The position numbers were made by a program, and so were the translations under genes. The notes under the pieces were generated by a model. The model saw only the letters and a program-made list of their open reading frames with translations. It was not told the DNA's origin and did no database searches. A DNA stretch of 64,000 nucleotides from Escherichia coli (GTDB lineage: Bacteria > Pseudomonadota > Gammaproteobacteria > Enterobacterales > Enterobacteriaceae), in assembly GCF_024223415.1 (NCBI RefSeq), contig NZ_CP100500.1. One strand, 5' to 3'. This document shows positions 57,678 to 58,346 of this stretch, one piece after another; within the stretch, counting starts at the first letter, position 1; the number at the start of each line of letters is the position of its first letter.

Positions 57678-57693
57678 CACAAGGAAACGTACT

Positions 57694-57731
57694 TAAGGTG
57701 CGTCCGGTGAACCAGTCGAACGCACCTTTAA
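57694..57731 (+). terminator. Hairpin after shoB
   Basis: AAGGTGCG-(18 nt)-CGCACCTT followed by an AT-rich run. Confidence 0.45.
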
Positions 57732-57871
57732 TAACTATAAATAAGTGTCTGGGCAGATACTATATAAATTAACTTAGTGAATGTTTGTGCTAATAATCAT
57801 CAATTAAATAAATATAATAGCGTTAAGGTTTCCCTATAAAATAATTAATACTCTACTTCAGGAGCAGAATA

Positions 57872-58132
57872 TTAAATTTTATCCGCGTGGTGCATCAGCA
57901 CAAATTTATCCCACAACTGTTCTTCTGTCTCGACATGTTGCGGATCTTTCACAATAGTATTAGGGATCGGACACACCTTCTGGCAGGTTGGCGTCTCGTA
58001 GTGACCTACGCATTCGGTACACTTATCGCTGTTAATCTCGTAGATATGTTCACCCATTGAAATAGCCTCATTTGGGCATTCAGGTTCACACATATCACAA
58101 TTAATACAGCGTTTAGTAATTAGTAAAGACAT
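57872..58132 (-). CDS. yfhL: 4Fe-4S ferredoxin-like protein YfhL
   Basis: 86-aa ORF with two Cys clusters ([12 protein letters not shown]; [18 protein letters not shown]). Confidence 0.93.
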
Positions 58133-58346
58133 TTCAATGAATTACCGTTAAATCATTTTAAAATCAGTAAGTTGTATCGAGTTTGTATGCTTTACTGTCA
58201 TTAACTTACTGTATGTTGATCCAGTGTATTTAACCTTGATAAACTCAGTCCAGCAACACAAAACCGCAACACATTGCATTTTGTCCCGTAGAAAAGACTT
58301 GTATGTGTGAGCTTGTTTTCTGCGCCTACGCAGATAAGGATTGAGA

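Follow-up and report, generated by a model that had tools for sequence, protein, structure and literature searches.

The DNA analysed here, referred to as the window, is a stretch of 64,000 nucleotides from the Escherichia coli contig NZ_CP100500.1 (assembly GCF_024223415.1). Within it, the gene run rnc-era-recO-pdxJ-acpS precedes ohsC, shoB, yfhL and an integrase gene (Table 1). Two spacers in this run were described in an earlier reading made without database searches (the sequence-only reading) as markedly AT-rich and devoid of tRNA, and both statements were upheld. The GC content is 32.1% in the 190 bp of 57682-57871, within the lowest 0.4% of the window's 200-nt windows, and 36.0% in the 214 bp of 58133-58346, within the lowest 1.1%, compared to 50.8% for the whole window; such AT-richness is usual for E. 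coli intergenic DNA. No tRNA or tmRNA was found by ARAGORN in 50000-64000, and ohsC was the sole match in an Rfam scan of 57100-58500. With no such gene in 50000-64000, a tRNA or tmRNA was ruled out as the integration target. The ohsC match itself (57172-57274 region) scored 103 bits on the minus strand and was accompanied by a weak plus-strand match of 37.6 bits, below threshold, that overlaps the acpS terminator; the latter probably reflects a palindromic terminator hairpin in common.

Table 1. Features of the yfhL-integrase region, in window coordinates.
Feature	Position	Strand	Basis or remarks
ohsC sRNA (RF02495)	57198-57274	minus	Rfam
shoB	57598-57678		
Native shoB-yfhL spacer, AT-rich, outside the element	57682-57871		DH10B alignment, E. 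coli genome matches, GC
Hairpin GGTGCGT...ACGCACC	57698-57726		
Chimeric yfhL, 86 aa	57872-58132	minus	Codons 17-86 host, 11-16 att core, 1-10 phage
attL core (common core O), TTCACACATATCACAATT	58085-58102		yfhL codons 11-16 (NCDMCE)
Phage-borne yfhL start codon and codons 2-10	58103-58132	minus	Native counterpart MALLITKKCI
attP arm, int-proximal; also the new upstream region of yfhL and of int	58133-58346		
IHF-like site AATCAGTAAGTTG	58162-58174	plus	Fits consensus WATCARNNNNTTR; beside A/T tract; read from sequence
ACTG...CAGT dyad	58208-58225		Conserved
Tandem candidate arm-type integrase sites TCCAGCAACACAAA and CCGCAACACATTGC	58249-58262 and 58264-58277	plus	Repeat family, conservation
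Core-like inverted block GCTCACACAT	58303-58312	minus	About 35 bp upstream of int start
Tyrosine integrase, 465 aa	58347-59744	plus	ATG at 58347, AAGGA Shine-Dalgarno ahead
Small HTH_17 protein, 66 aa, candidate excisionase / directionality factor	59741-59941	minus	

The integrase appears to be a divergent tyrosine recombinase. It matched the Pfam family PF00589 over residues 246-359 with 29.5 bits against a cut-off of 27.1, and PHROG_1 with E = 8.6e-26; its relatives in RefSeq are annotated as tyrosine-type recombinases, and ...LHHSSKSDDPMAEHYDF... was seen at the C-terminus of the translation. Comparison with NCBIfam and PDB sequences gave no useful match. The small protein encoded beyond it matched Pfam HTH_17 at E = 1.3e-5, below the cut-off, and the DNA-binding PHROG 4745 at E = 4e-27, with weak matches to excisionase PHROGs and to TIGR01764, and it is a plausible candidate for the excisionase. 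The integrase gene and the HTH gene are convergent, their ends overlapping by 4 nt (59741-59744); leftward early transcripts, running from the SNF2 gene into the HTH gene, would pass antisense through int towards yfhL.

The boundary between chromosome and element was located by a megablast search of 5426 complete E. coli genomes with 57200-59800 as the query. The left part of this query is present in 5425 of the 5426, and more than 5000 genomes match it through 57682-57871. Only 159 genomes cover at least 80% of the query, with yfhL and the integrase gene contiguous; in the remainder the match ends at query base 923, corresponding to window position 58122, within the 5' end of yfhL. The spacer at 58133-58346 occurs in one copy in each of exactly 159 genomes, the same number, and is absent from the other 5267. 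It was assigned to the element because it was not seen in strains lacking the integrase. Alignment with the element-free strain DH10B (L001), where yfhH lies 55 bp upstream of yfhL in the same orientation, revealed near-identity up to 58102, a partly similar 30 bp reaching to the start codon, and unrelated sequence thereafter. To judge from these alignments, all DNA to the right of the core, i.e., 58103-58346 and the integrase gene onward, is phage-derived.

These comparisons bear directly on what the sequence-only reading had proposed, namely a junction somewhere within 57680-58346 at which the element had either recombined in the yfhL promoter region or replaced the native DNA upstream of yfhL. 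The junction does lie in that interval, although inside the yfhL coding sequence, and the second alternative proved correct: native upstream DNA has been replaced by the 58133-58346 segment, integrase-adjacent in all 159 genomes, and the start codon and codons 2-10 have been replaced with it. Identical DNA through 58133-58346 in strains without the integrase, which that reading had named as evidence against its proposal, was looked for in the 5426 genomes and was not encountered. The left AT-rich spacer, also offered as junction DNA, was ruled out since 57682-57871 aligns end to end with DH10B at approximately 95% identity; on this alignment it is core chromosome and has no role in the junction.

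A single block, TTCACACATATCACAATT, is common to the attB of DH10B, the attL of the window and both ends (attL and attR) of two related prophages, those of OkiPb01695 (L002/L003) and STEC1590 (L004/L005), as their alignments demonstrated, and the same 18-bp core is present in an attP contig (L006). The identical core is thus found in all four sites of the quartet and, in the relatives, as direct repeats flanking the element, one copy at each prophage end, with a spacing of 42,086 bp in OkiPb01695 and of 48,790 bp in STEC1590. The window stops 5.9 kb into the element, and the evidence on attR and the core comes from these complete related prophages. The core is unique in the window, where 0 of 100 shuffles matched it. 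No second copy with two or fewer mismatches was found there because the far end of the element falls outside. The repeat of 15-25 bp that the sequence-only reading had suggested looking for at the far end was recovered, as the 18-bp core, in the related prophages but not in the window. In those relatives, the core at attR adjoins the native first codons of yfhL, after which comes the yfhH stop, leaving a remnant ORF of 18 codons that reads into phage DNA. The far end of the present element would correspondingly read TTCACACATATCACAATT, then GATGCATTTTTTAGTGATTAACAACGCCAT, then the yfhH stop. By this comparison, strand exchange must occur within the 18-bp core. Inverted core-type sites and an overlap region were sought by eye and with a repeat finder, and no convincing dyad emerged that would place the cleavage positions within the 18 bp.

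The attP junction was predicted from the two prophage ends and then sought in IMG/VR. It was present in IMGVR_UViG_3300018477_000015 (L006), in which the far arm is joined directly to the core, the near arm and the integrase gene, and in which the left flank is the same as the OkiPb01695 prophage far end; the 58103-58132 segment is also found there. Two further attP forms (L012 and L048) were recovered from a scan with the integrase protein; like L006/L029, they join the two arms, core and int and are without the host body of yfhL. Such a junction would derive either from an unintegrated phage or from the inside of a tandem double lysogen, its sequence being that of attP both ways. The existence of attP forms indicates that the phage itself carries the core together with a yfhL start codon and codons 2-10, which in attP form a mini-ORF of 18-22 codons. 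No match to the att/int module was found by megablast among the INPHARED phages, and hence attP is supplied by no named sequenced phage.

On this basis, the region is best understood as the attL of a temperate phage integrated by its tyrosine integrase into the 5' end of the ferredoxin gene yfhL, a reading to which we would give a probability of about 0.9. Recombination would take place within the 18 bp common to phage attP and bacterial attB. Integration would leave the native yfhL promoter, start and first codons approximately 42-49 kb away, beside yfhH at attR, while the phage copy would take the place of the native start and thereby rebuild an intact yfhL of 86 aa with two conservative substitutions. 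The AT-rich 58133-58346 is then a phage attP arm, with its tandem CAACACA repeats and IHF-like site.

Compared to K-12, 20 of the 30 phage-borne nucleotides (58103-58132) are identical, and the seven altered codons comprise five synonymous and two conservative changes (A2S and K8R); Cys9, the first cluster cysteine, is retained. The chimeric YfhL scored 135.5 bits against the NCBIfam YfhL equivalog NF033683 (cut-off 86) over model positions 1-78. The generality of this restoration was assessed in 80 IMG/VR loci encoding the integrase at 75-100% identity. Complete junctions were available for 69 of them, and in each yfhL is intact (68 of 86 aa and one of 89 aa) and divergent from int at a distance of 214-215 nt. 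The others comprised five loci in which a contig end cuts the junction, three attP forms, and one each with a GTG start of yfhL overlooked by an ATG-only ORF scan, too short a sequence upstream of int, and an integrase truncated N-terminally. Among GTDB species representatives, all seven loci detected, with integrases of 68-94% identity, have the same yfhL-int arrangement and an intact yfhL; they belong to Shimwellia pseudoproteus, Kluyvera sichuanensis, Enterobacteriaceae LSJC7, Pantoea stewartii, Serratia marcescens and two Erwinia MAGs. The recurrence of the arrangement in all seven indicates that the link between integrase and the yfhL 5' end is family-wide. A substitute gene end on the element and an intact ORF, as expected of target-gene-restoring integration, are both present, and these junctions show the pattern of an element on which selection has acted to preserve its target gene.

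Earlier descriptions of the site would have it that integration disrupts or inactivates yfhL: Bobay 2013 (PMC3603311) lists yfhL among the protein-coding genes disrupted by prophages, and PMC10675304 describes prophages integrated into it. The displacement of the native promoter would agree with this. The K-12 gene has a perfect TATAAT 33 bp upstream of its start, within the yfhH-yfhL spacer, and this promoter region stays at attR in lysogens; upstream of the new start codon similarity to K-12 ends, with 11 of 60 positions identical. A consensus scan of 58133-58347 reported no sigma-70-like promoter on the minus strand, and thus no clear replacement, and a -10-like TAAAAT noted by eye in the phage arm is without a good -35. 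With no minus-strand promoter match, expression of the rebuilt yfhL is unproven, and its transcription may still be silenced. Disruption or inactivation of the gene is nevertheless improbable in view of the ORF being intact in 69/69 complete IMG/VR junctions and 7/7 GTDB loci, the bias of the phage-borne codons towards synonymous change, and a protein score above the equivalog threshold. At the level of the ORF, the term "disrupted" is not borne out for yfhL.

Improbable to a similar degree is the proposition that the element is a degraded remnant, or a non-phage island, which keeps an old junction and is immobile. Only 5.9 kb of the element is visible, the relatives closest to it cover 82-86% at 94-96% identity in a mosaic pattern, and induction of related yfhL Stx2b prophages failed in one study (PMC12029490). 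Against this, the integrase is encoded by a full-length ORF, with up to 100% identity to its counterparts in complete prophage contigs of 38-45 kb, and the attL arm is identical to the arm in attP forms. The two complete relatives differ from each other: that of OkiPb01695 is a myovirus-type prophage without stx, and that of STEC1590, which the element part of the window matches best, is a lambdoid siphovirus-type prophage with stx2b.

Several further observations were made on these relatives. The OkiPb01695 and STEC1590 prophages have in common their att-int and replication modules, the latter encoding SNF2, VRR-NUC, DNA polymerase, DUF2815, DUF2800 and primase-like proteins, and these are joined to two unrelated virion modules, the one in OkiPb01695 being that of a myovirus with a pinE invertible tail-fibre segment. 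No match of at least 99% to window 58000-64000 was found among the 5426 complete E. coli genomes, the best relatives having the mosaic coverage given above; the att-int module, by contrast, is up to 100% identical elsewhere. As delimited by its repeats, the STEC1590 prophage spans NZ_CP129345.1 1305643-1354450, whereas the published, PHASTER-based limits of 1307496-1355384 omit the integrase and HTH genes and include yfhH. The yfhH gene beside attR is annotated as a frameshifted pseudogene in OkiPb01695 (L003 19699-20548), a single case, and is intact in STEC1590.

In three IMG/VR loci (L017, L025 and L052), native-like GATGCATTTTTTAGTGATTA runs for approximately 20 nt beyond the core before the phage version begins, and their yfhL starts with MSLLITKK... 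rather than MSLLITKR... The pattern points to exchange or gene conversion in the 48-bp imperfect repeat, or to attP variants whose host-like core is longer; as aligned, these junctions show exchange outside the 18 bp in some lineages. Such chimeric junctions, together with the partial homology of 20/30 nt beside the core, could be taken to favour homologous recombination with a foreign yfhL allele on incoming DNA as the origin of the junction. This is very unlikely, however, as the same precise junction recurs at a fixed distance from a tyrosine integrase in several genera, attP forms exist, and the arm repeats typical of integrase-dependent sites are conserved. The other alternative of the sequence-only reading, an att core within the AT-rich promoter region of yfhL (58133-58346) with yfhL itself untouched, is refuted by the alignments. 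AT-rich DNA does adjoin the integrase gene and there is no tRNA, but empty-site strains cease to be identical at 58103, already within the coding sequence, 58133-58346 consists wholly of phage DNA present in attP, and the core was found instead at 58085-58102, the only block common to attB, attP, attL and attR.

Returning to site-specific integration at yfhL codons 11-16, the two arms of attP carry candidate features of an integrase substrate. The far arm is common to different phages for only approximately 115 bp from the core, and the near arm extends approximately 245 bp from the core to the int start. The 58133-58346 part of the latter is nearly 100% identical in three lysogens with different phages and is contiguous with the far arm in attP contigs. 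A CAACACA motif (consensus CAGCAACACAWW), picked post hoc after inspection of the sequence, is present twice in tandem in the near arm; the far arm has three conserved copies, one of them inverted. In L006, six of nine matches to AACACAWW fall within the attP of approximately 300 bp, where 2.15 would be expected in the whole 11.6 kb. The CAACACA copies do not vary among relatives whose integrases are as little as 75% identical, and over the same range the ATCA...TT(A/G) spacing of the IHF-like site is kept and the core-like block at 58303-58312, which forms inverted repeats with the core, is conserved. This block may serve the integrase as an autoregulatory site, or it may belong to the int promoter. 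We take these motifs to be candidate sites for the integrase (of the arm type), for IHF and for regulation, at which the integrase and IHF would bind. The HTH protein would presumably act as excisionase.

As a prophage site, yfhL was already known at the level of the gene. In addition to the listing cited above, a 2023 study in Toxins reported yfhL as a newly identified insertion site of Stx prophages, occupied by three of them (PMC10675304), an insertion site being defined therein as the gene adjoining the integrase, and a follow-up in Microorganisms (2025) placed the Stx2b prophage of STEC1590 at yfhL (PMC12029490). Both the locus and the prophage lineage of these reports are those of the present element. 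Among the papers searched, PMC3603311, PMC10675304 and PMC12029490 included, no account of the core, attP or ORF restoration at yfhL was found. The base-level anatomy and the family-wide restoration of the ORF are incremental to that knowledge.

The closest mechanistic analogue, by comparison of the two arrangements, would be the dusA-specific integrases (DAI), tyrosine integrases of prophages and genomic islands at dusA (Farrugia et al. 2015, PMC4482086). In both systems a conserved housekeeping gene has a tyrosine integrase next to its 5' end, which the element exchanges for sequence of its own, imperfect direct repeats mark attL and attR with the remnant 5' end at the far side, and the questions of a replacement promoter and N-terminus arise. 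They differ in that the target here is yfhL, with an 18-bp core within the first Cys motif of the ferredoxin; DAI are recognized by their location beside the 5' end of dusA/dusB, whereas yfhL was the neighbour in every locus examined. The attP also resembles that of lambda, as judged from sequence alone, in its short core, AT-rich arms of approximately 115 and 245 bp with repeated motifs in both, a match to the IHF consensus and an adjacent int. Unlike lambda, the integrase is of 465 aa and matches PF00589 weakly, and the candidate excisionase gene is convergent with int, the xis and int genes of lambda being co-directional. Phage 21 and e14 carry a copy of the icd 3' end, and the length of the ORF is kept after their integration. 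The present case is unlike theirs in that the exchange affects the 5' end, and with it the start codon, the ribosome-binding region and the promoter. The phage-carried gene end at icd is summarised in PMC3603311.

The region thus appears to be a routine prophage attL, here resolved to base level. The practical value is modest, and the finding adds a further example of a well-known target-gene-rebuilding strategy rather than a new mechanism. The base-level attB and attP correct a gene-level, sometimes misleading description of yfhL as "disrupted"; they also fix the exact limits of the prophage in a lineage to which Stx2b-converting phages belong, and the junction sequences are usable for insertion-site typing by PCR. 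The chances are about even that the yfhL-adjacent integrases constitute a family of the Enterobacterales, not formally described so far, whose target is always codons 11-16 of yfhL and which substitutes a phage-made promoter region, start codon and N-terminus. If so, the family would span Escherichia, Kluyvera, Shimwellia, Serratia, Pantoea and Erwinia and would represent, after dusA, the second clear case of 5'-end-replacing integration. A conserved ferredoxin could then fall under phage expression signals in lysogens, including those of Stx2b phages.
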